A stretch of DNA of 39,379 bases, taken from an uncultured Oscillospiraceae bacterium. GTDB taxonomy: Bacteria; Bacillota; Clostridia; Christensenellales; CAG-138. The notes beneath the pieces were generated by a model that did not search any database, had not been told where the DNA came from, and was given only the letters and a program-made list of their open reading frames with translations. Position numbers and translations under genes: made by a program. This document shows positions 8,213 to 33,070 of the stretch, piece after piece. Positions within the stretch are counted from its first letter, which is position 1; every line of letters begins with the position of its first letter. The DNA lies in contig CAYPLG010000003.1 in the NCBI GenBank assembly GCA_964411535.1, positions 1 to 39,379 on the forward strand, given 5' to 3'.

Positions 8213-8248
8213 ATAAATACAGTATTTTAAGAGAAGGAATTATTGAAT

Positions 8249-9367: not shown

Positions 9368-9392
9368 TCGAATCGCCTTTGATACATGCAGC

Positions 9393-9428: not shown

Positions 9429-9474
9429 TATATCCGGTATATTCCGCCGTTTTCACACTGCTTGTCTACGGTCC

Positions 9475-10185
9475 TTAATCAAACGGGCTGAACACCCTGC
9501 GCTCGTGCGTCATTGGATAGGCGCTGACATTTCCCTTGTCATCCATCGTTGCAAGATACACATCCTGAACGCTCTTATAGCCCGATGCGCCCAGTTCTTT
9601 TTCAAGATACCTTTCATCATATCCCAGCGCCTGTAATGTGTGCATAAGCGGCGTTCCGTCCAGAATAATATTATGCAAAACACGCTTCTGCTCCGGAAAA
9701 ACGGACATATCCACGGGCTGCAACGGCCGCCGGTCCTCCTTGGGCAAAAAGCTTACAGTACCGTTTTCCTCTAGGATGGCCGTCTGAATCTCCGCAATGT
9801 CGAAGTAGCCGTTAATGCGGCACAAAGTCAGAAAGTCCAGTATATCAAATCTGGCTTTTCGCATGTTCTCACGGTATACAATACCTTCATCCATTAAAAG
9901 AAGCGGCTTCCCCGTCATGACCTTGCGTACCGCCGGGAACCTACTTGTAAGAACCGATATAACAAATGCGATAGCCGCATACAGCACCATTGCAATCGCC
10001 GGAATAAATGGATTCTCCATTTCGGTAGCCATCTCCGCGGCAATGGAGCCAATGCTGATTCCGATAATGTAATCAAACATGGACATCTGCGAAATCTGCT
10101 TATTGCCCATAAGCTTGGTAAGCAGAAACAGAATAATCAAGGAAACAACGGCCGTCAGGCATACAGATGCTACTTCATTCCACAT
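9475..10185 (-). CDS. DUF421 (YetF-like) membrane protein
   Basis: LTKLMGNKQISQMSMFDYIIGISIGSIAAEM is the DUF421 signature. Start taken at ATG 10185 (MWNEVAS...). The longer track ORF (to 10326) would overlap the divergent gene and its promoter. No clear RBS, so the start is uncertain. Confidence 0.75.
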   Translation of the reverse strand: MWNEVASVCLTAVVSLIILFLLTKLMGNKQISQMSMFDYIIGISIGSIAAEMATEMENPFIPAIAMVLYAAIAFVISVLTSRFPAVRKVMTGKPLLLMDEGIVYRENMRKARFDILDFLTLCRINGYFDIAEIQTAILEENGTVSFLPKEDRRPLQPVDMSVFPEQKRVLHNIILDGTPLMHTLQALGYDERYLEKELGASGYKSVQDVYLATMDDKGNVSAYPMTHERRVFSPFD

Positions 10186-10223
10186 ATCGCTAGTATGAAC
10201 AGGGAACGCCAAGCTATGCGCCG

Positions 10224-10252
10224 TTGTAACGCCACAGTATTTGTGGTATAGT
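10224..10252 (+). promoter_or_regulatory. candidate extended -10 promoter for the homocysteine methyltransferase gene
   Basis: TTGTAA, 17-nt spacer, TGgTATAGT. About 30 nt upstream of ATG 10284. Confidence 0.45.
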
Positions 10253-10283
10253 AAGCAAAATAAAATGAACAGGACGAAAAGAT

Positions 10284-11138
10284 ATGGATTTGTTTTCGAT
10301 AAGACCCCTTCTGCTCGACGGCGCAAGCGGTACGATGTTACAGGACGCCGGGCTTCCCATCGGCGCTTCGCCCGATACTTGGAATCTGGAGAATCCGAAC
10401 GCCGTAGAGGCGCTGCACCGCGCCTATCTTGATGCGGGTACGCAGCTAATTCTTACAAATACCTTCAGCAGCAACAGCGTGCGCCATAAGCACGACGGAC
10501 GCGACGCAGCCGCACTCGCGCGCGCGGGCGCGGAAATTGCCGTAAGCGTTAAAAAATCGAGTGCAAATCCGTGCTTCGTCGGCTTTGATATCGGACCGCT
10601 CGGCGTTTTTTTGGAACCCATGGGCGATATGACCGAGGAGGAAGCGGAAGCGATATTTGCGGAATCCGTTCGCGCGGCTTCGGATACGGGCGTCGATTGC
10701 TTCGTCGTGGAAACCATGTGCGATATAACCGAGGCAGCAGCAGCCGTACGCGCTGCCAAACGCTTTGGCGGCGGGCTTCCGGTGCTTTGCACCCTATCCT
10801 TTGACGCGCGCGGCAGGCTCATGACCGGTGCGGACATTCCTGCCGTTGTCAGCGCCTTAACCGAGGCGGGTGTGGACGCGATCGGCTGCAACTGCGGCGT
10901 TGGTCCCGACGTTCTTATACAGCTACTGCCGCAGTTCCTGGCTTGTACCAGCCTTCCGCTCATCATGAAGCCGAATGCCGGACTGCCTGTTTTCCGTGAT
11001 GGAAAAACTTGCTATGATGTAACGCCGGAGGATTTTGCAGCGGATATGCAAAAGCTGTGCGACAGCGGTGTTTGGGCCGTCGGCGGATGCTGCGGCACCA
11101 CCCCGGCACACATTCGGGCGATTGCACAAGTGCTTTAG
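10284..11138 (+). CDS. homocysteine S-methyltransferase domain protein (stand-alone MetH N-terminal-like module)
   Basis: LLDGASGTML, ILTNTFSSN, and zinc-ligand Cys contexts GCNCGVGP and GGCCGTTPAHI. Confidence 0.85.
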   Translation: MDLFSIRPLLLDGASGTMLQDAGLPIGASPDTWNLENPNAVEALHRAYLDAGTQLILTNTFSSNSVRHKHDGRDAAALARAGAEIAVSVKKSSANPCFVGFDIGPLGVFLEPMGDMTEEEAEAIFAESVRAASDTGVDCFVVETMCDITEAAAAVRAAKRFGGGLPVLCTLSFDARGRLMTGADIPAVVSALTEAGVDAIGCNCGVGPDVLIQLLPQFLACTSLPLIMKPNAGLPVFRDGKTCYDVTPEDFAADMQKLCDSGVWAVGGCCGTTPAHIRAIAQVL

Positions 11139-11161
11139 CGCTACACGAACGCACCGTTACA

Positions 11162-11190
11162 AAAATCCGCCAAAATGGCGGATTTTGTTG
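11162..11190. terminator. bidirectional rho-independent terminator
   Basis: AAAATCCGCC-AAAAT-GGCGGATTTT followed by GTTG, between convergent genes. Confidence 0.75.
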
Positions 11191-11220
11191 TCTCTTGTCA
11201 ATACTGTTTGCAATAACAAA

Positions 11221-13221
11221 TCAACTGATCTCGACGCAGCAAATACGCGCCGACTTACCGGAGCCGCCCTTTCCGCGTGTGCCGACAACAAGGTAGTTGC
11301 CGAATACGGCGGGCGTTGAATCAATCCTGCTGCCCAGGTCGATGCTCGTTAAAATGCCGCCGTCCTTAGCGTCGTACATCGTCACCTTGCCGCCGCGGTC
11401 GCATTGCAACAGGTATGCGTTCCCGCGCTCGTCGTATATTACAACCGGGCTGGCCCAATAATCATCGCTCTGCTCAACCGTCCAGGCCACTGCGCCACTC
11501 GTTTTGTCATACGCAACGATGCGCCCGCCAAGATTGTAGGATCCGTCTGCATTCGGAACTGGCTGTGCTTCTGCAACAGGTGTCGCCTCCGGCGCGGCCT
11601 CTGCGGTTGCCTCCGGTGCGGGGGTTTCGGTCACGCTGCCCACTTGGGCGCTCTCGCCTACCTGCGTGCTTTCGCCCACCTGCGTACTACCGACGGCTGG
11701 CGCAGCACCGCCCACCTGCGAGGAAACCCCGCCGCTCCCCGTCAGTGCAGCCATGCTCAGCGGATAGATCACAAGGTTCGATATACTGCTGCCAGCCTTC
11801 CCCACGTGCGGCGTAGCCACCATGCCGCCGCTTGTCGCGCCGTCACCGGTGGAACAAATCTGCATCTTCTCCCACATAACCCGTCCGGTAAGCCCGTTGA
11901 TCTTTCGCTGATAGCTATAGCCATAGCCTGCGCCCAGCCCGCTGTCGCTAAACTTTACCATGGAGCCCGTGTAAAGATAGATCGTATTATCATCGAAACT
12001 TTCCTCTACAACTATGGAGGAATCCGTTTCGTCGGTTACGTCCACGGCGTATTTCAACGTGTAATTGTTGAGATCCACGCAGAGCAGCCTGCCGCCGTTG
12101 TCGGTAAAGAAGCCAAAATTGCGAAATGCCGCAACACTGCTTTCGATCCCGTACCAACGCGCATCCGCAGCATCCTTCTTGGAATAGCCGCTGCCCGTAT
12201 AGCGAAACTTGACAAGGCGTTCCGGCTCCATAGAAACGGTTGCCGAAGCGGGATCATACTGCGCATTGAGCTTTGCCGAATATAGCACGCCGTTCTCGCC
12301 GCCGTACACGATCGTATCGTTCACTATCATCGGGCTACCGTCGTATGCCTGCCAAACACGCTCTGCAAAGTAGTCATAACCGCCGAACGCATATATCTGT
12401 TCCTGTGTAAGCAGGTCGTATACGCGCACCTGCGCAGCGCTATTGCCCTGTTCGTTCTCCACGGGAATTCCCTGCCCGACAAACAGCAACGGATAACCGC
12501 GCGGGTCTATGCAGGCCGTACCCTTCTGCACAACGCCGGTTGCAATCGCCTCCCGCGTTTTCTTGCCGGTTTCCAGGTCGACAAAATATATGTTGCCGTC
12601 CATAGCCGGATAGATTACCTCGGTAAGCGGCGTCTCTGCGGTCTTATACGAATCGGCGACGTTCATGATCTGGCGCGTCTCATCCGGCCATTGCACGATC
12701 AGCGGCATACCCGTCCAACCGGTGCCCGTCCAGTTTCCAATCGCGCCGATGGACATACTCCACTTTTCGCGCATACGCTTTTCCGTAATGATCGGCGTGC
12801 CATAGACAAAGTTATTCCGATAATTGCTGCCGCCGAAGGTCAATAGGCCCGGAATCGTACTGTACTCCACATCGCGGCCGAAGGAAATTGCGTTTTCGCG
12901 CGTGTAGCTATTAAGCTCCTTGCCGTTGACCATGATCTCGCCCCGAAGTCCAAGCCGGCTTGGATCCGCGCTTGCATCTCGCACAACCGCTACGTTCGGC
13001 GGCAAGGAAGGCTTGGGCGTCATGGTCGGTGCGGCGGTTGCCGTCGGTACAGGCGTAGCTTCCAGCTCCTCGCCTTCCGTATCGTCCTCGTTAAGCTTTT
13101 TTACGACGAATACGGCGAGGCCTGCCACCGCCAGCAATATGAAAATCACGAGAAAGAAGCGCGGCTGCATGCGAAACCGTTTCTTTCTGCGTCTGGATGG
13201 TTGTCTTTGTTCTCTTGCCAT
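11221..13221 (-). CDS. membrane-anchored PQQ-like (BamB-type) beta-propeller repeat protein, paralog 1
   Basis: Basic tail, TM helix FFLVIFILLAVAGLAVFVV, Pro/Thr linker, then repeated blade motifs (MDGNIYFVDLETGK, GGRIVAYDKTSGAVAWTV, GGKVTMYDAKDGGIL). ATG 13221 has a GGGTGA RBS. Confidence 0.75.
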   Translation of the reverse strand: MAREQRQPSRRRKKRFRMQPRFFLVIFILLAVAGLAVFVVKKLNEDDTEGEELEATPVPTATAAPTMTPKPSLPPNVAVVRDASADPSRLGLRGEIMVNGKELNSYTRENAISFGRDVEYSTIPGLLTFGGSNYRNNFVYGTPIITEKRMREKWSMSIGAIGNWTGTGWTGMPLIVQWPDETRQIMNVADSYKTAETPLTEVIYPAMDGNIYFVDLETGKKTREAIATGVVQKGTACIDPRGYPLLFVGQGIPVENEQGNSAAQVRVYDLLTQEQIYAFGGYDYFAERVWQAYDGSPMIVNDTIVYGGENGVLYSAKLNAQYDPASATVSMEPERLVKFRYTGSGYSKKDAADARWYGIESSVAAFRNFGFFTDNGGRLLCVDLNNYTLKYAVDVTDETDSSIVVEESFDDNTIYLYTGSMVKFSDSGLGAGYGYSYQRKINGLTGRVMWEKMQICSTGDGATSGGMVATPHVGKAGSSISNLVIYPLSMAALTGSGGVSSQVGGAAPAVGSTQVGESTQVGESAQVGSVTETPAPEATAEAAPEATPVAEAQPVPNADGSYNLGGRIVAYDKTSGAVAWTVEQSDDYWASPVVIYDERGNAYLLQCDRGGKVTMYDAKDGGILTSIDLGSRIDSTPAVFGNYLVVGTRGKGGSGKSARICCVEIS
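11635..11688 (-). repeat. 18-bp coding tandem repeat (about 3 units)
   Basis: Units CTCGCCTACCTGCGTGCT and TTCGCCCACCTGCGTACT plus one degenerate unit encode STQVGE/STQVGE/SAQVGS in a low-complexity loop of paralog 1. Confidence 0.8.
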
Positions 13222-13263
13222 CCGCTTTCACCCTTTCTTTGCGGATTCAATCCTGTGTGCGCG

Positions 13264-15291
13264 TCAGTTGATGCGAACGCCCAGTATCTTCATGCCGCGC
13301 GTACCAACGACGATCATGTCGTTATAGGCCGCCGGCGACGCTTCGATGTTCTTTTGCGAATCAAACGTATGCAGCACCGTGCCGGTCAACCCGTCCAGCA
13401 GGAAAATCCGATCGCCGGTATCGCTGCCCTCGCATACGACGATATATGCATTCCCGCTTGCGTCATAGATTGCCAGCGGCGAGCTCCACGTGTACTTTTC
13501 CATATTGAATGTCCAACGCACTTCGCTCGTCTTCTTGTCCAGCGCCACAAGCTTTCCGGAATTCTCCTCCGGCGTGCGCGCAAACGGAATGATCACAAGG
13601 TCCGATATCGACTTTTCCCCAAGCAGCGCCGTCGCCTGTATGCCGCCGGAAACGCCGGACTTCGTAATCACGCTCTCCTCATACTTCCACACGATCTCAC
13701 CCGTCTCCGCGTCCACCTTTACAAAGGGAATCGTGCCGCGCTTGTCCGCATCCGCGATAAAGTGCAGCGACGGGCCGATATAGATATACGCCTTATGGTT
13801 CGTCTCATCCAGCTCGATTACCGGCGAACCGTTGCAATCGTCCTTCACATCCTGCGCCCAGACAATCGTCATCGTATTGAGATCGATGCATTGTAAAAAG
13901 CCGTCGTTCGTGCCAAGGTACGCGTATCCGCCGAGCACGGCGATGCTCGACTCGTACCCCAGCCAGAAGGTATTCGTGCTGCTGGCCGGATAGGTGGAGC
14001 GCGACCCCGCATACCGCATCTTCACAACGTGGTTGGGATGCATCGTGATCGTCCCCGCAGCCTCGTCGTATACCGTGTTGAGTTTGATCGTATATAGAAT
14101 GCCGTTCTCACCCGGATACACGAGCGTATCCGTCTTGGCATCCACAAGCGGCGAGGAATCGTAGGCGTGCCAATCGCGCAGCGAAAACGGGTCATTCTGT
14201 TTTCCGAATTCATACAGCCGCGTAAAGTCAATGAGCGAAATCGCCATTGCCCGCGACTTCTGATCCTCGGAAAGATACATATCGCCGGAGCCGAGATACA
14301 GTATTGGATATCCGCGCGGGTCCAGCGCGCCTGCGCCCTTAAACGGCATGTTCAAAAACAGCTTGTCGCGCGTAGGCTGCCCCGTCGCAAGGTCGAGAAA
14401 ATAGATGTTGCCGTCCATCGTAGCGTAAATGACCTCGACAAGGTCTGTCTTCTGCTTCGCGGAATCGTACAGGTTCATTACCTGCTTTGTCGCCTCCGGC
14501 CACTTCACGATAAGGGGCTGCCCCACCCAGCCGCTGCCTGTCCACGTGCGGTCTGTCGGGCCGCTTACGTCGCTTCTGCCAAGCTCGCCCGTATCGACGC
14601 TCCATGCGCCTGTAAGCTTCCGGTTGCTGACGGTTGCTAAGCCGAAAGCAGGCTGCGTGCGCAGATTGTTGCCGCGGAACGTGATAACGCCGTCCAAATC
14701 GGTATAGTTCCCGTCATAACCAAAGTTGATTTCCTCGTCGCGCTTGTACGTTGCAACCTCCGCGCCGTCAACCTCCACCTTGACGCCGATACCGTACTTG
14801 GCCGGTTCCGTACCCTCCACCGCATGCGGAATACCGTATGGCGGCGTAGGCGTAGGCGTGGGTGTTGGGCTTGGCGTCGGCGTAGGACTTGGCGTCGGCG
14901 TTTTGAACAGCTCGCTAAATATGCCGGGCTTCGGTGTTTTTTCCGGCTCCTGCACGCCGTCGTCACCGCTCTTTAATGCAAGCGTCAGTACAACGGCAAA
15001 TACGGCGATTACGACAAGGGCGATTGCCAGCAGCAGATAGAAACGGGGCTGAATGCGCACCCTGCGCCGATGCTTTCTTTTCTTCTTATGTCCGGAGCCG
15101 CTGCCGCTGCGGCCGGAGCCGGACGACCCGGATGCACGCACAGCAGACGGACTGCGCCGCGTGGGCGTATCGCCCCGATAGGAGCTGCTTCGATACGAAC
15201 CGCTCCCCCGTGCCTGCGTATGATGTTCCGACGTCCGCCGGCTTTCGTAATCGCTCGTACCGCGGTAGTCGTCGTCCCGATAATTTGCCAA
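13264..15291 (-). CDS. membrane-anchored PQQ-like beta-propeller repeat protein, paralog 2
   Basis: Colinear with paralog 1 (WTGSGWVGQPLIVKWPEATKQVMN vs WTGTGWTGMPLIVQWPDETRQIMN; MDGNIYFLDLATGQ vs MDGNIYFVDLETGK). Start set at TTG 15291, which lies 8 nt after GGGAGG. The track's TTG 15345 has no RBS and remains an alternative. Confidence 0.75.
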   Translation of the reverse strand: MANYRDDDYRGTSDYESRRTSEHHTQARGSGSYRSSSYRGDTPTRRSPSAVRASGSSGSGRSGSGSGHKKKRKHRRRVRIQPRFYLLLAIALVVIAVFAVVLTLALKSGDDGVQEPEKTPKPGIFSELFKTPTPSPTPTPSPTPTPTPTPPYGIPHAVEGTEPAKYGIGVKVEVDGAEVATYKRDEEINFGYDGNYTDLDGVITFRGNNLRTQPAFGLATVSNRKLTGAWSVDTGELGRSDVSGPTDRTWTGSGWVGQPLIVKWPEATKQVMNLYDSAKQKTDLVEVIYATMDGNIYFLDLATGQPTRDKLFLNMPFKGAGALDPRGYPILYLGSGDMYLSEDQKSRAMAISLIDFTRLYEFGKQNDPFSLRDWHAYDSSPLVDAKTDTLVYPGENGILYTIKLNTVYDEAAGTITMHPNHVVKMRYAGSRSTYPASSTNTFWLGYESSIAVLGGYAYLGTNDGFLQCIDLNTMTIVWAQDVKDDCNGSPVIELDETNHKAYIYIGPSLHFIADADKRGTIPFVKVDAETGEIVWKYEESVITKSGVSGGIQATALLGEKSISDLVIIPFARTPEENSGKLVALDKKTSEVRWTFNMEKYTWSSPLAIYDASGNAYIVVCEGSDTGDRIFLLDGLTGTVLHTFDSQKNIEASPAAYNDMIVVGTRGMKILGVRIN

Positions 15292-15362
15292 TGGATTCGC
15301 CTCCCAAAAACGGAATATGGCCTGCCGGGAACCTCGCCCGGTCAAAGCATATTGTTTTGCCT

Positions 15363-15390
15363 ATTATACCATCGTTTTTTTGCAGCGCAA
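15363..15390 (-). promoter_or_regulatory. candidate promoter for the beta-propeller gene pair
   Basis: Minus strand reads TTGCGC, 16-nt spacer, TATAAT. Located between the livF terminator and the paralog 2 start. Confidence 0.4.
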
Positions 15391-15497
15391 GGGTTGCCCC
15401 GTATCGCGAAGCGGCAGCACTGCTTTCTAAAAAAGTATACCATCTCAAGATGTAGTTGTCAGTTGACGAATTGTAAACATTATTTAGTAGTTTTGGC

Positions 15498-15531
15498 AAA
15501 AAAAGAGGTCTGCCGCATTCGACAGACCCCC
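15498..15531 (-). terminator. rho-independent terminator after livF
   Basis: Minus strand reads GGTCTG...CAGACC stem followed by TCTTTTTTT. Confidence 0.6.
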
Positions 15532-15547
15532 TAACCACATTTTCGCG

Positions 15548-16264
15548 TTATTTCGCCTTGCCAAGATATGCGGCACGCACCGCTTCGTTGTTGAGCAGTT
15601 CGTTGCCCGTGCCGGAAAACGTGATTTCACCCGTCACCATCACATAGCCGCGATCCGCCGTTTTCAGCGCGGCGTTTGCGTTTTGCTCAATCAGCAGGAC
15701 CGTCACGCCGTCCGCATTGATGCGCTTGATAATCGAGAAAATGTCACGAACAACAAGCGGTGCAAGACCCAGCGAAGGCTCGTCCATCATGATCAGCTTC
15801 GGTTTGGCCATCAGCGCGCGCGCAACGGCAAGCATCTGCTGCTCTCCGCCGCTCAGCGTACCGGCAAGCTGCCAATGCCGCTCCTGCAAACGCGGGAACA
15901 TGCCGTAGACATACGCCATATCCTTCTCAATGCCGTCCTTGTCATTGCGCAGGTATGCGCCTATGCGCAGGTTTTCCAGCACCGTCAGGTTCGGAAACAC
16001 GCGGCGCCCCTCCGGCACCATGACGATGCCGGACTCGACAACCTTTTGCGCATCCGCCTTCGTAATGTCCGTACCGTTATACACGATCGAACCCGACGCC
16101 GCCGGCACGATACTGCTGATTGCGCGCACGGTTGTGGATTTGCCGGCGCCGTTTGCACCGATAAGCGTTACAATTTCGCCTTCCTCAACGGTGAACGAAA
16201 TGCCTTTGAGCGCCTCAATCCCACCATAATTGACCTTCAGGTCCTTGACTTCCAGCAGACTCAT
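15548..16264 (-). CDS. livF: branched-chain amino acid ABC transporter ATP-binding protein LivF
   Basis: Walker A GANGAGKST, signature LSGGEQQMLAVARAL, C-terminal AYLG. 4-nt overlap with livG. Confidence 0.9.
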   Translation of the reverse strand: MSLLEVKDLKVNYGGIEALKGISFTVEEGEIVTLIGANGAGKSTTVRAISSIVPAASGSIVYNGTDITKADAQKVVESGIVMVPEGRRVFPNLTVLENLRIGAYLRNDKDGIEKDMAYVYGMFPRLQERHWQLAGTLSGGEQQMLAVARALMAKPKLIMMDEPSLGLAPLVVRDIFSIIKRINADGVTVLLIEQNANAALKTADRGYVMVTGEITFSGTGNELLNNEAVRAAYLGKAK

Positions 16265-17106
16265 TCTTCATCCACCCCCAGATACGCGTTGATTACGTCC
16301 GGATTATCCTGCACTTCCTGCGGCGTGCCATGTGCGATCAGCTTGCCGAAGTCAATGACGTAAATACGCTCGGATATCTCCATAACCAGATCCATGTGAT
16401 GCTCGATGAGGAACACCGTAAGCTTGAAATCGTCCCGAATCTGCCGGATAAACGCCGTAAGGTCCATCGTTTCCTGCGGATTCATGCCCGCCGCAGGCTC
16501 ATCGAGCAGCAGCAGCGAGGGGTTTGTGGAAAGCGCGCGCGCGATCTCCAGCCTGCGTTGTTTGCCGTACGGGAGGGAGCAGGCAAGCTCATTGCGCACG
16601 TTTGCGAGGCCGACGATTTCCAGCAAATGCTCCGTCTCGGCGTACATTTCGCGCTCTTCCCGCGCGTTAAGGCGAAATACTTCCGCAAACAAACCGCCCT
16701 TCAGGTTCATATGTTTTGCCACAAGCACGTTTTCGAACACCGTCATGCTCTTGAACAGGCGAATGTTTTGGAACGTCCTCGCCATCCCCAGCTTCGTAAT
16801 CCGGTCAGGCGTATTGCTGACGATATGCGTATACTCGCCCGCATGCCCGGCGGCATAAAGCTTTTTCATCTTTCCACGCGGATAATCCTCCGCAATGGTC
16901 TTGCCGCGCAGCACGACGCGCCCGTTCGAGGGGGCGTATACGCCGGTGATCACGTTGAACACGGTGGTTTTGCCCGCGCCGTTCGGCCCGATTAACGCGA
17001 CGATCTCGCCCTCGTTCACGTCCATGGTCAGATCGTTGACCGCAACCACGCCGCCAAACTGCATCGTGACGTTTTCCACATGCAATACATTCTGCTTCTC
17101 CGGCAT
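16261..17106 (-). CDS. livG: branched-chain amino acid ABC transporter ATP-binding protein LivG
   Basis: FGGVVAVNDL, Walker A GPNGAGKTT, MARTFQNIRLF, LLLLDEPAAGMNP, IEHHMDLV, AYLG. Confidence 0.9.
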   Translation of the reverse strand: MPEKQNVLHVENVTMQFGGVVAVNDLTMDVNEGEIVALIGPNGAGKTTVFNVITGVYAPSNGRVVLRGKTIAEDYPRGKMKKLYAAGHAGEYTHIVSNTPDRITKLGMARTFQNIRLFKSMTVFENVLVAKHMNLKGGLFAEVFRLNAREEREMYAETEHLLEIVGLANVRNELACSLPYGKQRRLEIARALSTNPSLLLLDEPAAGMNPQETMDLTAFIRQIRDDFKLTVFLIEHHMDLVMEISERIYVIDFGKLIAHGTPQEVQDNPDVINAYLGVDEE

Positions 17107-24864: not shown

Positions 24865-24991
24865 CTGGTTCTCCTGTAGCATGTATTGCGAAATCCCTAT
24901 TCGCCCAGCGGCCTTGCGCCAAGTCGCGAAAGGTATGCGTATGCGTCGGCAAGTTCTCCGCGTGTAACATCGTGCACAAGCGTAAGCCTGG

Positions 24992-25204
24992 CGCCGTTAC
25001 AAACGCAACCGGAAGCGCATCCTTCGTTTCCGTTCAAGTACTTTCGTACATATCCGTTCAAATAATCCGCCTTGTCCTTTGCAAAGCCATACTCTCCATA
25101 TCGGTCTTATAATAGTTCATGTCGCTCGCCCGGTGCCCGCCAAAACCGGCGAGGGCAACGCTATGCACGCCCGCGCCGCGAATCGCCTTTAACAGCATGA
25201 CAAG
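24992..25204 (-). pseudogene. decayed duplicate of the 3' end of the aldolase/DUF115 gene
   Basis: Aligns by eye to 25897-26106 with about 11 substitutions plus +1 and +2 nt indels. Has no start codon and overlaps the last codons of the HAD gene. Confidence 0.8.
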
Positions 25205-25869
25205 TATTCTAATACTTCCGCCGCGTTCGCGCAAGGATATCCGCCCAGTGCGAGTACCTCTTCGCTGCGTGCAAATCCATAGCCATAAGTAACGCCAATA
25301 AAGGCAATCCCTGCGGCAGCAGCTCCCTCCGCGTCACTCGCGGTATCGCCAACCATGACCGCACGTTCCGCAGGAACAGCTGCCTCCGCAAGACATAGGC
25401 GTATAATATCGCGTTTTTGCATCTTACCTGCAAAATCCGACCCATGCCAAATCTTTACATAGCGATCAAGCCCAAAGTGAGAAAGCAACGTTCCCACATA
25501 GTCCTCGCGCTTATAGGTTGCCACAGCGATACACACACCGCAAGCACAGAGCGCAGCAAGCATTTCGTAAACACCTGGATATAGCGTTGCGTGAAATAGA
25601 TCTACTTGTTTGTAGCGCGCGCGAAACATTGCAGCCATGTCTGCTGCCGTCATCTCATCCACGTTGTAATAATGACGAAAGGAATTCTGAATCGGTGGGC
25701 CAATAAAAGTCCGAAATGCGGCGTCCGTGACAGGTGGCAGGCCAAAAGCGTTCGTCGTATACTGTACTGCGCTGTACATTCCTTGTGCGGGATCAAGCAA
25801 CGTGCCGTCGATATCAAATATCGCTAGACGGCTGTCCGTGTTGAGTATGCTGTGCGCTTTCTCTTCCAT
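25189..25869 (-). CDS. HAD-superfamily hydrolase (phosphoglycolate-phosphatase-like)
   Basis: Motif I FDIDGTLLD, motif III/IV VGDTASDAEGA. 6-nt gap after the upstream gene. Confidence 0.85.
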   Translation of the reverse strand: MEEKAHSILNTDSRLAIFDIDGTLLDPAQGMYSAVQYTTNAFGLPPVTDAAFRTFIGPPIQNSFRHYYNVDEMTAADMAAMFRARYKQVDLFHATLYPGVYEMLAALCACGVCIAVATYKREDYVGTLLSHFGLDRYVKIWHGSDFAGKMQKRDIIRLCLAEAAVPAERAVMVGDTASDAEGAAAAGIAFIGVTYGYGFARSEEVLALGGYPCANAAEVLEYLSCC

Positions 25870-25875
25870 AACAGC

Positions 25876-27483
25876 CTATTCCCCCTCATATTCGGACGCC
25901 GTTACAAACGTAACCGGAAGCGCATCCTTCGTTTCGTGCAAGTACTTCCGTACATATCCGTTCAGATAATCCGCCTTGTCCTTTGCAAAGCCATACTCCA
26001 TATTGGTCTTATAATAGTTCATATCGCTCGCCCGGTACCCGTCAAAACCCGCGAGGGCAACGCTATGCACACCCGCGCCGCGAAGCGCCTTTAACAGCAT
26101 GACTAGCGAGTTGTCGGGAATCTCCGTTTTAGGATCGATCAGCGCACTGTAATTGAGCACATACGGAAAATCCCCCTGTGCGCGCGTTACGTTGGAGGTT
26201 GCTACAATCGCAATGGTATCCTCCACCTTGGCAAGGCGGGAAGCCATCTGCGCATACCGCTTCGCATTCGTGATAAACAGCCACTTGACCGTTTCACAGT
26301 AAGCCCGCGGCAGAAAATTGATGGAGAATACAACCGGGCGGCGCTGCCGTATGTACGCCTGCACATCCGCCTGCTTATGCGCAATAGACGGCCCCGGCCC
26401 CAGCACCAGCACCTCGCGTCCTTGCAGCTTCTCAAACAATGCCGCCCGCGCATCCGCATCGTCGCACTCGTTCTTTTGAAAATCCAGATAGAGCGCTTCA
26501 ATCCGCTTTTGGTTGTACAGCAATTTTTCGTCGCCCACCAGCTGCGAAAGGATCTCCTTAATGGACTTCATCGAAAGCGTTCGCTTTTCCATCAGATAGG
26601 ACACATAGTTCGGATGGCACTTGTTGCTCGCCGCTACATAGTAAAAGAAGTTGTAGCCCCACGGGGTTACGCGGTAAATGTCGAGGATATTCGTCTCGAT
26701 GGCTTCGAGCAGCTGGCTTACATCGTACGATTTTCCGCAATGCTCGTTCATATACATGGAGATGAGCTCAATCGGCGCGTTACCTGCGCTCTTGCCCATG
26801 CCGTACAGCGAGCCGTCCACAACGATGTCGCGCTGCGTATCCGCATGGAGCATGCTGATGCTGTTCGCATAACCCATCTGAAAATTGTTGTGCGCATGAT
26901 AGCCCAGAGCAATCTCCGGCAACAAATGCGCGTCCGCAACCTTGAAAATATGCAGCAGATTGCTTTGATGCAGCAGGCCGTACGTATCCACCATGGACAT
27001 GGCAAACGGGCACACGCTGTTGACAAGGCCGATGAGTTCCAGCAGTTCCGGGTCGGAGTAGCTGGTAATCGATACGGCTTGCGCAAAAACCCGGTAACCA
27101 AGCTTCTTCACCTCCGCGCAAAAAGCAAGCGCCTCGTGCATCAGGTGCTTTTTGAATATCACGCGTATGCCGTCGAGCACGGTATTCTCGCAAGGCTCTA
27201 TGTTTGCAATCGGACACGTGCCATAGTCGATCATGCCGACGACAATCGCGTCGCCTTTGTGAATGCCGCCGTAGATGCGCGTCGCGCTCTTTGTATCCGG
27301 CATAATGCTGCGGTTTTCGTCAAAGGGTCTGCGCGCATCCAGAAATCCGACTTCGATTATGTCCACGCCTGCGCCGGCCAACCGCTCAAACACGCTGGTC
27401 AGCGTATCGCGCCCGAATTCCCAGTCGTTGATGTAACCGCCGTCGCGCAGTGTGCAATCCAGCAAGCGGAGCTTCCTCGTCAT
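25876..27483 (-). CDS. fusion protein: HMGL-like (DRE-TIM) aldolase domain plus DUF115/MptE-like domain
   Basis: N-terminal DCTLRDGG and YHAHNN metal-site motifs. C-terminal LVLGPGPSI and VALAGFDGY, characteristic of DUF115 (Maf/MptE-like). ATG 27483 follows GGGGGAGG, with an ATGA overlap on the gtrA stop. Confidence 0.75.
   Translation of the reverse strand: MTRKLRLLDCTLRDGGYINDWEFGRDTLTSVFERLAGAGVDIIEVGFLDARRPFDENRSIMPDTKSATRIYGGIHKGDAIVVGMIDYGTCPIANIEPCENTVLDGIRVIFKKHLMHEALAFCAEVKKLGYRVFAQAVSITSYSDPELLELIGLVNSVCPFAMSMVDTYGLLHQSNLLHIFKVADAHLLPEIALGYHAHNNFQMGYANSISMLHADTQRDIVVDGSLYGMGKSAGNAPIELISMYMNEHCGKSYDVSQLLEAIETNILDIYRVTPWGYNFFYYVAASNKCHPNYVSYLMEKRTLSMKSIKEILSQLVGDEKLLYNQKRIEALYLDFQKNECDDADARAALFEKLQGREVLVLGPGPSIAHKQADVQAYIRQRRPVVFSINFLPRAYCETVKWLFITNAKRYAQMASRLAKVEDTIAIVATSNVTRAQGDFPYVLNYSALIDPKTEIPDNSLVMLLKALRGAGVHSVALAGFDGYRASDMNYYKTNMEYGFAKDKADYLNGYVRKYLHETKDALPVTFVTASEYEGE
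25897..26106 (-). repeat. intact copy of the ~210-bp direct repeat flanking the HAD gene
   Basis: See 24992-25204. This copy is in frame within the aldolase/DUF115 CDS. Confidence 0.8.
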
Positions 27484-27992
27484 TTTTCCGCCGCCTCCCC
27501 CGCCGTTGTCTCCTCCGCCTCGGAAGGCGATTTGCGAAACGCCCAAAACTTATTGACAAGGAAATTCAGGGGAACCGTTATGCAAAGGTTGATCAACGGC
27601 GCAATATTCTCCGATATATGGAGCTTATCCACCCATAGCCACAGCAGCACAGCGCCAAGCAGATAGCTCGTCAGTCCGTACCCGGCTACGGTTCGCGCAA
27701 AGGTTTTCAGATGCTCGAAAAACGTCCGCCGTCTGCCCATTTTGAACACATAGCGGCTGTTCCAGAAATAGGAATTCACAACGCCGACAACAAAACCGAG
27801 AAAATTGGCAAGCTGGTGATGCAAGTGGAACACGTTCACGCATACATAATATACGCCCAGGCTGATCAGCGTATTGGACACGCCTACAATCCCGAACTTA
27901 ATAAACTGCATAATCGTGCTTTTGAGGCCTTCCGACCGTATGGTCTCCTTTATATTGGATAGCTGAAAGCCCGGCTTTTTTTGCATTTCCAT
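27480..27992 (-). CDS. GtrA-family membrane protein
   Basis: FIKFGIVGVSNTLISLGVYY signature, four helices. First gene of the glycan operon. Confidence 0.85.
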   Translation of the reverse strand: MEMQKKPGFQLSNIKETIRSEGLKSTIMQFIKFGIVGVSNTLISLGVYYVCVNVFHLHHQLANFLGFVVGVVNSYFWNSRYVFKMGRRRTFFEHLKTFARTVAGYGLTSYLLGAVLLWLWVDKLHISENIAPLINLCITVPLNFLVNKFWAFRKSPSEAEETTAGEAAEK

Positions 27993-28079
27993 CGGCGTAT
28001 GCCACTTTCCCGGCTGCGCGAAATGTATATACGCATACCGCTACTACTACATTGTAGCATAGTTTGATGAAAAGCAAAA

Positions 28080-28105
28080 CCCGTCAGTCGTAATACTCGA
28101 ACACC
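28080..28105. repeat. left copy of 26-bp perfect direct repeat (orphan gene-end fragment)
   Basis: CCCGTCAGTCGTAATACTCGAACACC, identical to 31711-31736. Confidence 0.95.
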
Positions 28106-28167
28106 GCTAGTTAGCCCTTCTTTATAGACGACCACGTTTTCTCACGCGAGCTAAGACTTTTGTTATA

Positions 28168-29553
28168 TTACAGCTTTTTCATTCGATATAGTAACCGTTT
28201 ACTGTCTGAAACCAGTTGCTTATCTGCAATTTCAAAAAACTTGCAAAAAGCATTTTCAAACCCAGTTTCCGAATAATTCGGAAATATATCGTCTCGCGTA
28301 GCAAGCAGCACCTGTACTTTCGAGTCTTCCTTCGGAACAAATTCTATAATCAGGTTGTCCGCAAGAGAGGATAGCCATTCTGCAATTTTCGGCAAGGGAA
28401 GATTATTTGATATTGCCAAATGATGAATAATTGCAAGCGCTAAAATGCAGTCTGGCTTCCCACGTTCCGCAATGCTCTTGCGTTCGCAATTTGCAAATCC
28501 AATAGCTGGGCTAGGATTAGTAAGATCAATGATCAACGGTAAGATATTAACGTTTTCTGACTTGACCAAAGAATAATTGCGTTCCGTCGCAAGCGGATCT
28601 ATGTCAAAAGCAACCGCCATCATCCCGTCTGTTGATGCTAGTTTTGTGTATACTCCATCGTTTGCGCCCAAGTCCCAAACCATCTTTGGTGCTATTTTTT
28701 TAATATATGCCCGTACAATAGCTTCCTTTGCGTCTGAAGCCACCTGCGAATAATTCGTGTGTGCATAGTAATCTGACCATTCTGTCTTTTCCTTGCGAAG
28801 TCGCAATGATTCAATCCCGCGGATAATGCTGTCAATCATTGCAATATGGTTGTTTTTCGAAAGATAAATTTGTTTCGTTCGGCTAACGCTTTTCCCGTCT
28901 TCTGCATGCCCCATAATTGCTTTTGCATGCCAATGTATATGCTGTTTTGCAAAAAAGCCGCCCTTTCCATGCAGCAATTTGGATGCCAATGGCAACGGAA
29001 TACCATCAATATAAAGTCTAAGAAGCTTGCTCATCTGCAAATCCAGGTTACACATCATCAACAACGGCGCAATAAAATGTCTGCAAAACTGTCCATATGC
29101 TATCCACGGCATGCCCTCTTGATATATATCAAATGATAGCGTATCTATTAATACAGGCTGTCCATGCAAAAACTGCACATTATACGCGCTTGCATCTTTC
29201 AATATCATTCCGTGTGCAAGCGCCTTTTTATGGCAGGAAAGAGTAAGCAATGCTGCATCCTTTAACATCCCAAAAGCCCACTCATAGGGATAGGAAATGA
29301 ATGGAATATTTGTTGGTTCAATTACCAAAAAGGCATCGTTTGTAATTCCCTCTTCTGTTGATACTTGATGACCAATCAGCATGCCTGCCTTTGTCAATTC
29401 AGCATATAAGCCGCCATCCATTAACTTGCAATACTGTTCCCTGTAGCAAGGATTTATTTGACGATATAGTCTTCCATTGCGTGTGAAAACCATTCCGGAA
29501 GGATCGCGAAACGAGCTAGCCTCAATCTGAGCGTTATCGTTCTTCCTTATCAT
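28168..29553 (-). CDS. two-domain protein: N-terminal kinase-like/unknown domain plus C-terminal class I SAM-dependent methyltransferase
   Basis: N-terminal FRDPSG...YPYEW...LKDASAYNVQF...IDTLSF. C-terminal SAM motif I VWDLGANDG and post-I AFDID. ATG 29553; the track's TTG 29583 is an alternative. Confidence 0.7.
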   Translation of the reverse strand: MIRKNDNAQIEASSFRDPSGMVFTRNGRLYRQINPCYREQYCKLMDGGLYAELTKAGMLIGHQVSTEEGITNDAFLVIEPTNIPFISYPYEWAFGMLKDAALLTLSCHKKALAHGMILKDASAYNVQFLHGQPVLIDTLSFDIYQEGMPWIAYGQFCRHFIAPLLMMCNLDLQMSKLLRLYIDGIPLPLASKLLHGKGGFFAKQHIHWHAKAIMGHAEDGKSVSRTKQIYLSKNNHIAMIDSIIRGIESLRLRKEKTEWSDYYAHTNYSQVASDAKEAIVRAYIKKIAPKMVWDLGANDGVYTKLASTDGMMAVAFDIDPLATERNYSLVKSENVNILPLIIDLTNPSPAIGFANCERKSIAERGKPDCILALAIIHHLAISNNLPLPKIAEWLSSLADNLIIEFVPKEDSKVQVLLATRDDIFPNYSETGFENAFCKFFEIADKQLVSDSKRLLYRMKKL

Positions 29554-29743
29554 TCTGCGTTTCTTGCACTCCTTCCTTCTCAAAATTGGACGTTATCTTC
29601 GTCTGACTCGTTTTTTTGCCTTTGCGGGAAACCCACCATGCTTTTACCCTTGCCTTGAAGGCAAAAAGCAACGCCCCGCAAGCCGCTATTCCTGCGATCA
29701 GGATCTGAATAATCATACTTCCAAAACCAGGATCCAAATACAT
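29534..29743 (-). CDS. small membrane protein (69 aa)
   Basis: ATG 29743 lies 7 nt after GGAGGAA. MYLDPGFGSMIIQILIAGIAACGALLFAF helix followed by a Lys-rich tail. 20-nt overlap with the downstream gene. Confidence 0.6.
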   Translation of the reverse strand: MYLDPGFGSMIIQILIAGIAACGALLFAFKARVKAWWVSRKGKKTSQTKITSNFEKEGVQETQNDKEER

Positions 29744-29836
29744 TATTTCATTCCTCCATTGTTCATTCATTCTTTGTTGCACATACTAGCAAAAAGCCTA
29801 TGTTCCTGCATGCACAAGATAACACTCGTAACGCTA

Positions 29837-31525
29837 TTAATCGTTTTCTACATAAGCATAGTTACCGGAACCTACAAATCGATTCACAAGGTACCTAGAC
29901 AAATTCAAAGGGGTACGCAATGCATTGTCTTCCTCTCCGTTCTTGTATGCATCCGGCACCCGTATTGCGCTTATTACGCTATTCCAAAGTTCTTGCGCCG
30001 GAGTATCATCGCCGAATGCCGCATTAAAATCCTCTTCCGTATTGTTGTGAAGTCCATGATCACCTTGTAAAATGATCACTGCATTCGGATCCTGTGTACA
30101 AATAGCATCAATCATTCCTAGCAGAACTTTGCTCGTATAAACATGATTTCCTAGGTAATTGCAAATTTCACGACTGTCCTTCGTACTGTCAATCACATTC
30201 CCTTCAGAATCATATGCAAAAGGATTATGCGCCATCTCAAACATCAAAACTGTAAGCTGTGGCGCAATATCTGTTTGTAGCGTCATGAAAAACTCTTTTG
30301 CAAAGTTTAGATCGCAGGTTAAAGAGCGTTCTGTCATCCGCAACTGTTGTAATTCCTCTTTAGATATGGAATAATTCACTTCACCAGCAAGCTGTTCGTG
30401 TTGAGTATCCTTATCCGCGCCGTGCAACATCTCAAAAATAATAAACGCAGGCTTTGCAAATGTTTCCAAAAAAGCTTCGTACTGTATTTGTTCCTTAATC
30501 TTCTGTACATCAGAAGCACCTCGACTGACTTGATTCGATGGCAAAGTACAGCTTTGCAAGTAAATCGAATCCGTTGTTCGGTTAATATAGTCACTGAACA
30601 AAAAGAAATCCGTTCCTTCCGGAAAAAACACCCCCGGATATGTGCAAACTATTTTTATCCGATAGCCTTTGAGCCGAAACGCTGTAAATAGATCAAGGTT
30701 CCTTCGTGCTTCAACTACGTTCTTGCTGGAACCTACCGCCGTACGATCTTTTTATGATTGGATTATTTCTTTCAATGTATCATCATAGTAATCTGGGCTC
30801 ATCATCGACGGAATTGCAACATACGTAATATGTAACGACTCCAGATATGCATTTTTGTTTAATGCGAATCCTCGTTCATTAAGTGCGGCATTAAATGCTG
30901 CTTGTTCATCGTGAAAATATTTATTGACCGTATCAAATCCAAGCATTCCGTCACAATGAATCCAATAAATATTTGGACTTTCCTGACGATTAACTTCAAA
31001 ATCCGTCCGATAATCAGCACTTGTAGCAATAGCGATTTTCTTCTGTTCAGTATTCCGAATAATAATACGAGCGCTATTCATACTAAGTAATGCAAGTATA
31101 ACCGTAAATAAAAACACTGCAACAACGTCATCGGCCGCTTCGTGTTTTCGTAAAACAATACCGATTACAATCGCAATAATTATGAAAATAGAAATTGATA
31201 TAGGCAATCCGTGTACTTCCCGATCAAGGAGGTCGCAAAATAAAGCTCTAAGTTCGTTATAAGAAAAAAATATGATCCAAAAAATAATACATATTGCAAT
31301 TGCCGACAAGAAACTTTGAAAAATTGCTCGTGCCGAATAATACAATATAATGGAAAATACCATTTCAAATACACAAATAAGTAAAATGTATCGAAATAAT
31401 ACTTGTTCTACGTTTTGGCTGTAATAATACGATGTAATTGCTACTGGAATTAATGCAGATGAAATAAAAAACATCCATTTGTATAATTCAGCAGACCTAC
31501 ATTTTTCCATAGTTCTCATTTTCAA
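29837..31525 (-). pseudogene. sulfatase/LTA-synthase-family membrane protein interrupted by one in-frame TAA
   Basis: ORFs 30752-31525 (five TM helices plus PNIYWIHCDGMLGF) and 29837-30631 (ILQGDHG sulfatase motif) are in the same frame. The 40 codons between them contain no further stop. The stop codon is at 30752-30754. Confidence 0.7.
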
Positions 31526-31662
31526 TTACTGCTATGCTTAATCATTTCTATAACAAGTTGGTTGAACAATCCTGCACTCTTTCCTTCCCATTCCAATTAC
31601 CATGCAATTTGATTGCATTAATTCTTGTACATTATAACAAAATAAACTGTTTTTGCAATAAC

Positions 31663-31708
31663 ATAGAACCATAATATGTCCTACAATAGAACCATAATAT
31701 GTTCTACA
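31663..31708. repeat. 23-bp tandem direct repeat x2
   Basis: ATAGAACCATAATATGTCCTACA / ATAGAACCATAATATGTTCTACA, with one mismatch, abutting the right 26-bp repeat. Confidence 0.9.
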
Positions 31709-31710
31709 AA

Positions 31711-31736
31711 CCCGTCAGTCGTAATACTCGAACACC
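31711..31736. repeat. right copy of 26-bp direct repeat (functional 3' end of the M15 gene)
   Basis: Covers 4 nt after the stop, the stop codon, and codons VFEYYD of the 31715-33070 CDS. Confidence 0.95.
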
Positions 31737-33070
31737 TTCCTAAGCCCGCGCTTCGCATCGTCATGCTGTACGCGGATGTTGTCGGTTAATGTAAAATGCA
31801 TGCCGTCGCTCGTAGAATTGTAATAGTGTCCCCATTGAAACCCGGCGCGGTAAAATGCAAATTCGTACAGTAGATAGTTGATTACGCTTTCCGGCATCGC
31901 AAAGTCCGTACAGGCGTATGTCCCGGAATAGCTGAAGTCATAATACTGCTTTCCGTCTTCCGTCAAAATGCCATTGTAAGCCAGGCAATTGCGCACCTCC
32001 TTGTCAATTACCTGCAAATTCTCTTTTATATTCTCGTTCGGCGGCATGACGGCGTTGATATCCGTCGCCGTGCCAAGGCCGTGATGCGAAAAGTACTTCA
32101 GTCCGGAGGTGTAGCGCGACAGGTAGGAACCGTTGTAGTCGACGATGAGGCGGGACAGCGGCAATATGCCCGTGTCGCCGTTCGTTCCATGCACCCGCAC
32201 GGACGCGCTCTGCAAATATGCGCGCGCCTTTTCATAATACGGCACCGCGTCAATATGCACGCGCCACGGTTCGCCCTCGTCCATCTTGATTTCCGTAATA
32301 TACTTCGCTTCCCAGTCCGGGTCGGCCACGGTATAGCGGCCGTATACCCTTTGGAAACGATACAAAAAGCGATCCTTGTCGCCGAAAAAGGCCAGTGCGG
32401 TGGAATAGCTGTTGTTTGAGAACATGGATGCGTCAATCCGCGTCCAGTCCTCACCCAGAACATAAAACTTGCCGCTTTCCTGCAAAAACGGCATATCCCC
32501 CTGCACACCCGTCTGCGTGCAGGATGCGGAAAGTACAATTGTATGCAACCCGGTTTTAAGTTCCGAAAAACGCATCTGTTCGGAAAGAGAAGCGCCTTCG
32601 TTCGTTCCCGCTGCGTCGGTGAAACGATAGCTTGTCATGTTGCTGCCGGGCAAAAACGTCACCCGGCCCACGTATGGATAGAACGCATCCTCCGTATAAT
32701 CGCAAAGAATCATGATCGAAACCGACGTAAGCGGATAGTTGCAGCGGATGGTTCCGTCCAGCATCCGTTCGCTGCCGAGCGCAAGCCGCTCCAGCGGCCC
32801 CGGCAGGGGCGCTGACTCGCTCTGCGTAAACACAAACGCCGGAGCGGGAGGCTGCGTTGGCGCAGGCATAGCCGCAGGCACGGGTGTTGTATCGGCATAT
32901 ATATGCAGCGCCGGCGCGCTCTCCGCGCGGGCATTCCTGTTTTCGCGCATGCCGTACATAACCAGCGCGCAGAAAACCGCAAGCAGGCAAAATGCCACAA
33001 CAGACAGCAGCAACGCTGCCCGAAAGCCGTTGCGATTCTGTCGTTTTCCGGTTTCTCTTGACGATTTCAT
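31715..33070 (-). CDS. membrane-anchored M15-family (VanY-like) D-Ala-D-Ala carboxypeptidase
   Basis: N-terminal anchor helix LLLSVVAFCLLAVFCALVMY, Pro/Ala linker, C-terminal SHHGLGTATDI (SxHxxGxAxD) and WGHY...DGMHF metal-site motifs. Confidence 0.65.
   Translation of the reverse strand: MKSSRETGKRQNRNGFRAALLLSVVAFCLLAVFCALVMYGMRENRNARAESAPALHIYADTTPVPAAMPAPTQPPAPAFVFTQSESAPLPGPLERLALGSERMLDGTIRCNYPLTSVSIMILCDYTEDAFYPYVGRVTFLPGSNMTSYRFTDAAGTNEGASLSEQMRFSELKTGLHTIVLSASCTQTGVQGDMPFLQESGKFYVLGEDWTRIDASMFSNNSYSTALAFFGDKDRFLYRFQRVYGRYTVADPDWEAKYITEIKMDEGEPWRVHIDAVPYYEKARAYLQSASVRVHGTNGDTGILPLSRLIVDYNGSYLSRYTSGLKYFSHHGLGTATDINAVMPPNENIKENLQVIDKEVRNCLAYNGILTEDGKQYYDFSYSGTYACTDFAMPESVINYLLYEFAFYRAGFQWGHYYNSTSDGMHFTLTDNIRVQHDDAKRGLRKVFEYYD

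Follow-up and report, generated by a model that had tools for sequence, protein, structure and literature searches.

A foreign envelope-gene cassette between duplicated copies of the M15-gtrA junction in a glycan locus of an uncultured Oscillospiraceae bacterium

Decayed integrative and conjugative elements (ICEs), like decayed integrative and mobilizable ones (IMEs), can persist as cis-mobilizable elements (CIMEs), which keep their attL and attR sites and typically lie at the 3' end of a gene (PMC5704250). Foreign DNA can also be acquired by homology-facilitated illegitimate recombination (HFIR), in which one end is homologous and the other illegitimate (PMC3240628; on HFIR and one-sided homology, de Vries and Wackernagel, 2002 and Prudhomme et al., 2002, both as cited in PMC5361080), or by single crossovers of circular molecules, which were commoner than HFIR and duplicated 109-950 bp of the homologous locus (PMC3240628; Amarir-Bouhram et al., 2011). 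A displacement process that strands orphaned pieces downstream of a conserved gene has been proposed for effector-immunity loci of type VI secretion systems (T6SS) and for Rhs C-terminal loci (PMC5361080), and clusters of the Gtr type, with a GtrA flippase, a GtrB-like GT2 and a GtrC/GtrII-like GT-C protein, are often horizontally mobile (e.g. PMC2909390). Here we describe a locus with features of each of these systems, on a contig of 39,379 nt from an uncultured Oscillospiraceae bacterium (CAYPLG010000003.1, assembly GCA_964411535.1; the whole stretch is called the window below). A low-GC, three-gene insert of about 3.6 kb lies between the gene for an M15 (D-Ala-D-Ala carboxypeptidase-like) peptidase and the promoter of a gtrA operon, and it is bracketed by a perfect direct repeat. 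With a probability that we put at roughly 0.55, the repeat is a junction duplication scar, left by illegitimate or one-sided-homology host recombination in a variable glycan locus.

The likeness to CIMEs lies in cargo without an integrase that is set between direct repeats, one of which is the 3' end of an intact gene; the differences are that no related integrase-bearing element, recurrent core or evidence of excision was found here, and that part of the repeat is native to the promoter downstream. HFIR and single-crossover insertion-duplication share with this locus the foreign DNA beside an anchor gene, a duplicated host flank of variable length and the lack of an element-encoded enzyme, but the duplication here is merely 29 nt long and perfect, and the event is inferred from one fixed product in an uncultured organism. 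In the T6SS effector-immunity arrays of Vibrio cholerae and in Rhs C-terminal displacement (PMC5361080), cassettes likewise enter downstream of a conserved gene, push orphan fragments downstream and recur from lineage to lineage, whereas the cargo here consists of envelope-modification genes and not of toxin/immunity pairs, and the orphan is a fragment of 29 nt (about 210 nt at a second scar, around a HAD gene) instead of a whole gene. As for the Gtr clusters, the host locus has the GtrA, GT2 and GtrII types and the insert adds envelope-modifying genes in the same orientation, but the inserted module is no gtr set: it combines an LtaS-family gene, a peptide and a methyltransferase. The kind of event is already known, and this is an ordinary, cleanly documented example of it; the insert looks like a fixed scar and not like an active mobile element.

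Junctions and composition of the insert

The repeat is exactly 29 nt long (AAACCCGTCAGTCGTAATACTCGAACACC) and stands at 28077-28105 and 31708-31736, with 3,602 nt enclosed between the two copies. A preliminary description of this DNA had reported a 26-bp perfect direct repeat around some 3.6 kb, which is borne out apart from the length: the 26-mer has exactly two copies in the window, in the same orientation, against none expected from shuffled sequence, and no 29-nt pair is expected by chance either. All genes of the region are encoded on the minus strand, and read in that direction the repeat consists of a single G, the codons GTG TTC GAG TAT TAC GAC (VFEYYD), the stop codon TGA and seven further nucleotides, CGGGTTT. 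The right copy (31708-31736) is native to the M15 gene (31715-33070), whose 3' end it forms: it comprises the last seven codons in part and the TGA, followed by CGGGTTT, which is native to the upstream side of gtrA; the reading frame confirms the earlier assignment of this copy to the stop and VFEYYD codons. The coding part is conserved in the M15 orthologues of two related contigs (L021 and L022), the orthologues (74% identity) terminating in GGTrTACGAGTAyTACGACTGA. The left copy (28077-28105), an orphan, is joined to the promoter region of gtrA. An exact 29-nt repeat whose right copy is the M15 3' end has the geometry of a pair of att sites and, as had been described, the target gene is regenerated by the duplication, M15 being intact with its 3' end inside the repeat.

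Outside the repeat the two copies share little. The left one is preceded by GCAAAA and the right one by TACAAA, so that of the CAAA said to precede both copies only the AAA is common and the C is not. The degenerate extension of about 12 nt that was thought to follow each copy is unconvincing, amounting to GGGCT and a few more bases with an indel, and we regard it as possible microhomology and as no part of the repeat; any microhomology at an illegitimate joint would be masked within the repeat itself, with the weak GGGCT similarity just outside it. Three independent Logan contigs from different runs (L001-L003) span both repeat copies, and the left junction recurs in eight further contigs of the same species (Logan and ENA; L004-L009, L106) at 99.8-100% identity. 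Since both junctions are reproduced in independent contigs, the structure is real and not an artefact of assembly.

The insert has a GC content of 39%, against 53% in its flanks, and in 500-nt windows the values are 33-44% inside and 50-60% outside. GC at third codon positions (GC3) is 0.33, 0.47 and 0.40 for the three cargo genes, whereas nearly all other large open reading frames (ORFs) of the contig lie at 0.60-0.75 and the immediate neighbours at 0.63 (GtrA) and 0.66 (M15; 0.63 for its last 300 nt). The tetranucleotide distance of the insert is 0.046, whereas 96 control windows of the same size give 0.0122 +/- 0.0014 (z about 25). The compositional break falls exactly at the repeat. The insert is a compositionally foreign, horizontally acquired segment, as the preliminary description had held of its interior composition.

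The M15-gtrA boundary and comparable scars

The genes on both sides of the insert have recognizable counterparts in relatives. On the M15 side, which has native composition and is the conserved anchor, the gene order GGDEF/EAL-GtrII-YjbR-M15 is kept upstream in the sister contig L021 and the synteny breaks off there precisely at the stop codon of M15. On the far side of the insert, gtrA (27480-27992; 27480-28059 with its promoter) is the first gene of an operon that runs GtrA-HMGL-...-TPP-GT2 in the window and is conserved as GtrA-HMGL-SDR-DHQS-TPP-GT2 in the relatives L107 and L110, and the host locus as a whole includes GtrA, a PgfS/GtrB-like GT2 and a GtrII-family protein. The candidate gtrA promoter that had been noticed beside the orphan copy has its -10 element, TGCTACAAT, at 28051-28059, and this element is kept in two sister taxa, L109 and L107. 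In L109, whose GtrA is 84% identical, the DNA is 79.6% identical from gtrA through the promoter and into the orphan copy, up to position 28098, which places 22 of the 29 nt of the orphan within the homologous stretch (the alignment sets GAGTATTA-GGCCGACGGGTTTTGC of L109 against GAGTATTACGACTGACGGGTTTTGC of the window, with a score reached in 0 of 2000 shuffles). In the M15-end remnant of L109 the stop codon is lost and about four of 22 positions differ from the window copies, and upstream of the remnant lies unrelated DNA. The CGGGTTT that follows the M15 stop in the window continues in L109 as gtrA-upstream DNA. Because these seven post-stop bases are gtrA-side sequence conserved in L109, the M15 stop codon and the gtrA promoter were immediate neighbours until the insertion, and the 29 nt across their junction were duplicated.

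By the same comparison, the sister lineage has broken this boundary independently, with other cargo, and has kept a shorter, degenerate remnant of the M15 end. A third taxon, represented by two contigs of one sample, shares only an 8-mer, CGCTTTCC, which stands after the M15 stop in one contig (L022) and at the homologous promoter position in the other (L107); as a duplication of the same boundary this is suggestive but weak. The duplicated stretches of the three lineages (about 8, about 22 and 29 nt, the first two on the assumption that the paired contigs come from one genome) have no single common core. The contig L021, which possibly belongs to the same taxon as L109, carries other genes after M15. 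Two further features of L021 may be mentioned here: an extra acyltransferase-3 gene between GtrII and YjbR (4428-5531 of that contig), which is another variable cassette, and a 13-nt tandem repeat (GAGTATTACGACT / GAGTATTAAGGCT) at 7380-7405, across its M15 stop codon.

A second scar lies in the window itself, at 24912-26103. It consists of a foreign HAD gene (25189-25869, GC3 0.48), an imperfect duplication, about 210 nt long, of the HMGL gene's 3' part and a remnant of a displaced gene. The intact HMGL sequence is at 25897-26103 and the orphan at 24992-25201, the latter being about 94% identical, with three indels, frameshifted and without the last eight or so codons. After the orphan comes the 3' end of a DHQS gene (24912-24998), where relatives have HMGL-SDR-DHQS-TPP. 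Judged from its order of intact upstream gene, foreign cargo and internal orphan fragment, this geometry cannot be a target-site duplication; it is unmistakably the scar to be expected from illegitimate recombination, with one homologous crossover and one illegitimate joint. Logan contigs break at the HMGL repeat of about 210 nt.

Similar arrangements surround homologous modules in other Clostridia. On a 3.9-Mb contig (L020), the order is a terminator T, a gene X, an orphan promoter and 5' end P', a second terminator T', the module, and P with the intact gene. Identity between the repeats is 95-97%, and the non-ancestral P'-T' joint has a 3-nt AAC. One event with one-sided homology explains this interleaved pattern (T-X-P'-T'-module-P). 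The same contig has a further perfect terminator repeat, of 32 nt, around a 3.56-kb segment of 42% GC with a gene for a HEAT-repeat protein, and in all three repeat-bracketed segments lie within 11 kb (6449-16872). In another genome (L018) the module is bracketed by a 51-nt repeat that contains a terminator hairpin. Altogether, six repeat-bracketed and mostly lower-GC segments were found in three Clostridia genomes (two in the window, one in L018 and three in L020), four of them about 3.5-3.6 kb long, and such repeat pairs are otherwise rare in the 920 kb of sequence fetched. The repeats are host-specific gene ends, terminators or promoters of 29, 37, 51, 162 and about 210 nt, and no end motif or inverted repeat is shared among the six segments. 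The short target-site duplication of fixed length that a transposase would leave is thus not seen (29 nt here; 37, 51, 162 and about 210 nt in the comparable segments), and variable, host-specific repeat lengths of this kind fit recombination, with neither a fixed att core nor a transposase stagger.

Elsewhere in the window there are three more patches of lower GC (44-49%), at 5001-5500, 8001-8500 and 9475-10326, where flanking repeats were not detected; one of them covers a YetF-family gene with a GC3 of 0.55. A 29-nt repeat at 93% identity occurs in two adjacent paralogues at 11221-15345 (666 and 693 aa, with a beta-propeller/PQQ-like C-terminus) and is unrelated to the insert.

Origin of the duplication

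Searches for a vehicle or an enzyme returned little. Neither the insert nor the rest of the 39-kb contig has an integrase, a transposase or terminal inverted repeats, by Pfam searches and by comparison of the ends (best inverted-repeat score 10 over the 80-nt insert ends), as the preliminary description had said of the insert. Downstream of M15, no recombinase and no second copy of the M15 end were found at eight orthologous loci (including L011-L015, L021 and L022), and the 29-mer is absent from IMG/VR viral contigs. Integron features were also lacking: there is no integrase on the contig, R''/R' attC motifs were not seen on direct reading of the repeats, and the repeats consist of the ends of host genes or of plain terminator hairpins. 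The insert is present in every one of the 11 same-species contigs whose upstream sequence is informative, and the cassette is fixed in the sampled population. When the exact GtrA, M15 and cargo proteins were looked up in public assemblies, no empty site, no circular junction and no other context of the cargo protein came up. A true empty site, which the earlier description had proposed to seek in related genomes, was not found in relatives at 74-84% identity either (L021, L022, L107 and L109), all of which have different DNA at the boundary; in a more distant metagenome-assembled genome, M15 and gtrA are on separate contigs.

The absence of a recombinase, the full occupancy, the lack of any other context for the cargo and the variable, host-specific duplications together speak against a transposase or an att site of its own for the insert and favour host recombination. 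Foreign DNA abuts a conserved anchor gene, M15, and an orphan host fragment stands on its far side, as in a scar of this kind. The starting state was the junction of M15 stop and gtrA promoter, ...GACTGA CGGGTTT TGCTTTTCATC..., at the edge of a variable envelope-glycan locus, and the incoming DNA a non-autonomous operon of three genes with its own promoter and operator-like repeats. In the most likely route, which uses one-sided homology, DNA of a close relative, holding the M15 end together with the cassette, would have recombined through M15 as the probable homologous anchor, and an illegitimate joint 22 nt upstream of the stop codon of the recipient's M15 gene would have closed the far end. 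This could have been HFIR or a single crossover of a circularised fragment; the product would be no different if the cassette had been captured in one step at a staggered break. The empty site before the insertion is predicted to have read ...GAGTATTACGACTGACGGGTTTTGCTTTTCATC..., and the circle junction, if the segment were excised, would read ...GGGCTAACTAGC-29mer-GTAGAACATATT... Both M15 and the gtrA promoter were left intact, and this is probably the reason that the product survived, since there are few ways into a gap of about 7 nt that damage neither the gene nor the promoter. Among the options raised at the outset, the best fit is the scar left by recombination with a foreign glycan locus, given the second scar and the displaced-gene remnant in the same window.

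Several points weigh against host recombination. The route is inferred from geometry only; the one-sided version needs an earlier event that placed the cassette beside M15 in the donor; and neither a donor with M15 and cassette nor a strain without the insert was found. The 29 nt are at the lower limit for a RecA-type crossover, a perfect repeat carries no signal of divergence between donor and recipient, and M15 shows no clear mosaic breakpoint relative to L021 and L022. Two to three sister lineages break within about 10-20 nt of the same spot, which could mark a preferred site, and recombinase arm sites are a conceivable reading of the tandem 23-nt repeats beside the right copy. These are two units at 31663-31708 (minus strand), each with a TAGAAC-N8-GT(T/C)CTA palindrome, which abut the right copy and are unique in the window (none expected by chance); we consider them likely to be the binding site of a regulator, probably dimeric, at the cassette's own promoter. 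The cassette holds no regulator gene.

The main rival is a decayed or trans-mobilised element of the CIME kind, to which we give a modest probability, given its classic geometry and a recombinase search that within this genome covered the 39-kb contig. Here a tyrosine-integrase ICE, IME or prophage would have entered the M15 3' end, the 29-mers would be attL and attR, and an internal deletion would have left the cargo. A direct repeat that covers and regenerates the 3' end of a protein-coding gene is the classic geometry, and the formal definition fits, with att sites kept and the genes for integration and transfer lost (PMC5704250); the abutting tandem units and the sister lineages broken at the same gene end are in line with it as well. 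The preliminary description had stressed this attL/attR-like signature, but the further evidence goes the other way. No integrase remnant survives, the non-coding DNA between the repeats and the cargo being limited to 182 nt (promoter and operators) and 62 nt; no recombinase occurs on the contig or beside the eight M15 orthologues, where the M15 end is also single; the 29-mer was not found in the viral contigs nor the module on phages, and the ends of related modules are not shared. The duplications of the sister lineages have no common core, the 29-mer has no obvious dyad symmetry on direct reading, and all 11 informative contigs are occupied.

Somewhat less probable, in our judgement, is an old cassette slot: the M15 end would have been duplicated in an ancestor shared with L109, the cargo swapped later through the M15 and gtrA flanks, and the two copies kept identical by gene conversion. 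This would account for the M15-end remnant that L109 has on its gtrA promoter with unrelated DNA upstream and for the other genes after M15 in L021, possibly of the same taxon, and cassettes have been exchanged elsewhere in the locus (HAD in place of SDR-DHQS; the acyltransferase gene in L021). An old orphan should drift, however, and the window copies are identical at 29 of 29 positions while the L109 remnant has diverged at about four of 22 and lost its stop; the duplicated extents also differ between the lineages, and the scheme supposes that L109 and L021 are one genome.

A dedicated mechanism of capture seems rather improbable. Cassettes would be placed at gene boundaries, and tens to hundreds of bases of target duplicated, either by an enzyme acting in trans or through end-joining at breaks with a long stagger. 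The six repeat-bracketed segments in three Clostridia genomes, four of them near 3.5-3.6 kb, and the rarity of such pairs elsewhere in the surveyed 920 kb speak for it, and the insertion in the window would need one event only. The HAD and L020 geometries, with an internal orphan, a P'-T' joint and identities of 94-97%, are nevertheless not those of target-site duplications, the ends have no common motif, and the sample, a small one, came from following one protein family. The broader claim, that in Oscillospiraceae-like Clostridia a process of integrase-independent capture routinely places foreign operons of some 3.5 kb at gene ends, terminators or promoters, duplicating tens to hundreds of bases and leaving the neighbours functional, is more speculative still; if it were true, it would be a distinct and not yet described route of gene acquisition. 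Finally, it is very improbable that a metagenome assembly, of the kind to which this contig belongs and in which short repeats can mislead de Bruijn graph assemblers, threaded an empty site and a separate circular or repeated molecule through a shared 29-mer, because both junctions recur in the three independent Logan contigs and the left one in eight more from different samples and assemblers, and at the Logan k of 31 a 29-nt repeat is still bridged by junction-specific k-mers.

Cassette genes and their relatives

The genes between the repeats form one minus-strand array. Its putative promoter (31631-31658), a consensus match with TTGCAA, a 16-nt spacer, TATAAT and an upstream TG of the extended -10 type, is the best minus-strand match of the region (10 of 12 positions). 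The first gene (29837-31519, 560 codons) encodes a probable membrane protein of the LtaS/sulfatase family: its intact 560-aa form matches PF00884 at the threshold (25.1 bits, cut-off 25), five hydrophobic N-terminal segments can be recognized by eye, and the partner gene in a homologous module of Singulisphaera is annotated 'LTA synthase family protein'. The second (29534-29743) encodes a predicted membrane peptide of 69 aa; it is also called in other assemblies, and its stop and the start of the following gene overlap. The third (28168-29553) encodes a 461-aa protein of two domains, an N-terminal one of about 250 aa and a C-terminal one that is, judged by its predicted fold, a class I SAM-dependent methyltransferase: in the AlphaFold model (pLDDT 84.7), the C-terminal half has Foldseek matches to ChlM, NodS and TehB at E about 1e-7, and there is a weak match to PF13489. 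An earlier reading as a kinase-like/methyltransferase fusion stands for the methyltransferase and could not be confirmed for the 'kinase-like' N-terminus, which has no Pfam match even at E = 10 and matched no NCBIfam or PDB sequence family. This half is an uncharacterised domain of a family with thousands of members across phyla, and it is strongly conserved, with LKDASAYN, IDTLSF and HIxWH invariant across 28 homologues. Taken together, the fold of the methyltransferase, the threshold match of the LtaS/sulfatase protein and the calls of the 69-aa gene elsewhere uphold the view of the cargo as envelope-related. Further searches added no function: PADLOC defence models and NCBIfam names do not match the cargo, the PDB holds no sequence relative of the 461-aa protein, and nothing was found by Rfam in 27400-32200.

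The nonsense codon that had been noticed in the sulfatase-family gene is real but strain-specific. In the window, a TAA at 30752-30754 breaks the gene, where L001-L003 have GGG (three adjacent substitutions) and an intact gene, and a contig of another sample (L005, 1-655) has a separate nonsense codon, GAA>TAA, at window position 30397. This gene shows four changes in 1,683 nt and two in 655 nt in these comparisons, against three in about 10 kb and none in 3.3 kb elsewhere, and the other two cargo genes are invariant. Independent nonsense alleles and a raised density of single-nucleotide changes, both confined to the LtaS-family gene, suggest that selection on its activity is relaxed, or favours loss, in some hosts.

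Between the methyltransferase stop and the orphan repeat lies an insert tail of 62 nt (28106-28167). Since no terminator is predicted in it, transcription of the cassette probably reads through into gtrA, and the cassette would then be co-transcribed with the gtr operon. Enzymes of the alkaline-phosphatase superfamily of the LtaS/EptA type move phospho-alcohol groups from membrane lipids to extracytoplasmic acceptors. As the cassette has the same orientation as a Gtr-type operon, with no predicted terminator in between, its most likely role, by analogy, would be to add a phospho-alcohol substituent, possibly methylated, to the extracytoplasmic glycan of that operon.

The family of the 461-aa protein is very large, with thousands of matches at about 60% identity in Clostridia and others at about 50% in sediment and soil metagenomes, and it also occurs on megaplasmids of Planctomycetes, Gemmatimonadetes, a deltaproteobacterium and Sinorhizobium. 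Its usual neighbours are an ORF of 64-86 aa, found at the equivalent position in the modules of L016, L018 and L020, and a large membrane protein, which in many cases belongs to the LtaS/sulfatase family. The DNA of the 69-aa gene is about 84% identical to L016 and L020 over its first 55 nt or so, and similarity among the modules is limited to coding DNA, at about 66%, with non-coding ends not shared. The nearest relative of the module other than itself is merely 69% identical and in a different context, so no recent donor is on record. Plasmids carry the module in distant phyla only, at 48% identity or less, phage records do not contain it, and bracketing repeats are absent from about 50 more distant loci of the module whose flanks were adequate. 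In L016 (4000-10000), the homologous module has a 1,027-aa partner without a Pfam match in place of the LtaS-family enzyme, and it forms a block of 45% GC in a genome of 57% GC without a flanking repeat. A mobile element with ends of its own was considered for the module and rejected, there being no conserved non-coding DNA, bracketing repeats, end motifs or inverted repeats; to judge from these comparisons, the module is not a discrete element with its own termini.

If host recombination produced this scar, an uncultured gut-type Firmicute would have gained surface-modifying genes without the machinery of a mobile element, in an event for which the sequence before insertion can be restored base by base. 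Sister lineages have re-used the edge of this glycan locus, so an att-like repeat, even a perfect one at the 3' end of a gene, is not sufficient, as a sole criterion, for calling an integrative element. The three-gene module itself is very widespread and uncharacterised, from Clostridia to Planctomycetes and rhizobial megaplasmids, and may be the better subject for follow-up. The independent knock-outs of one of its genes in samples from different hosts hint at selection on the surface structure.

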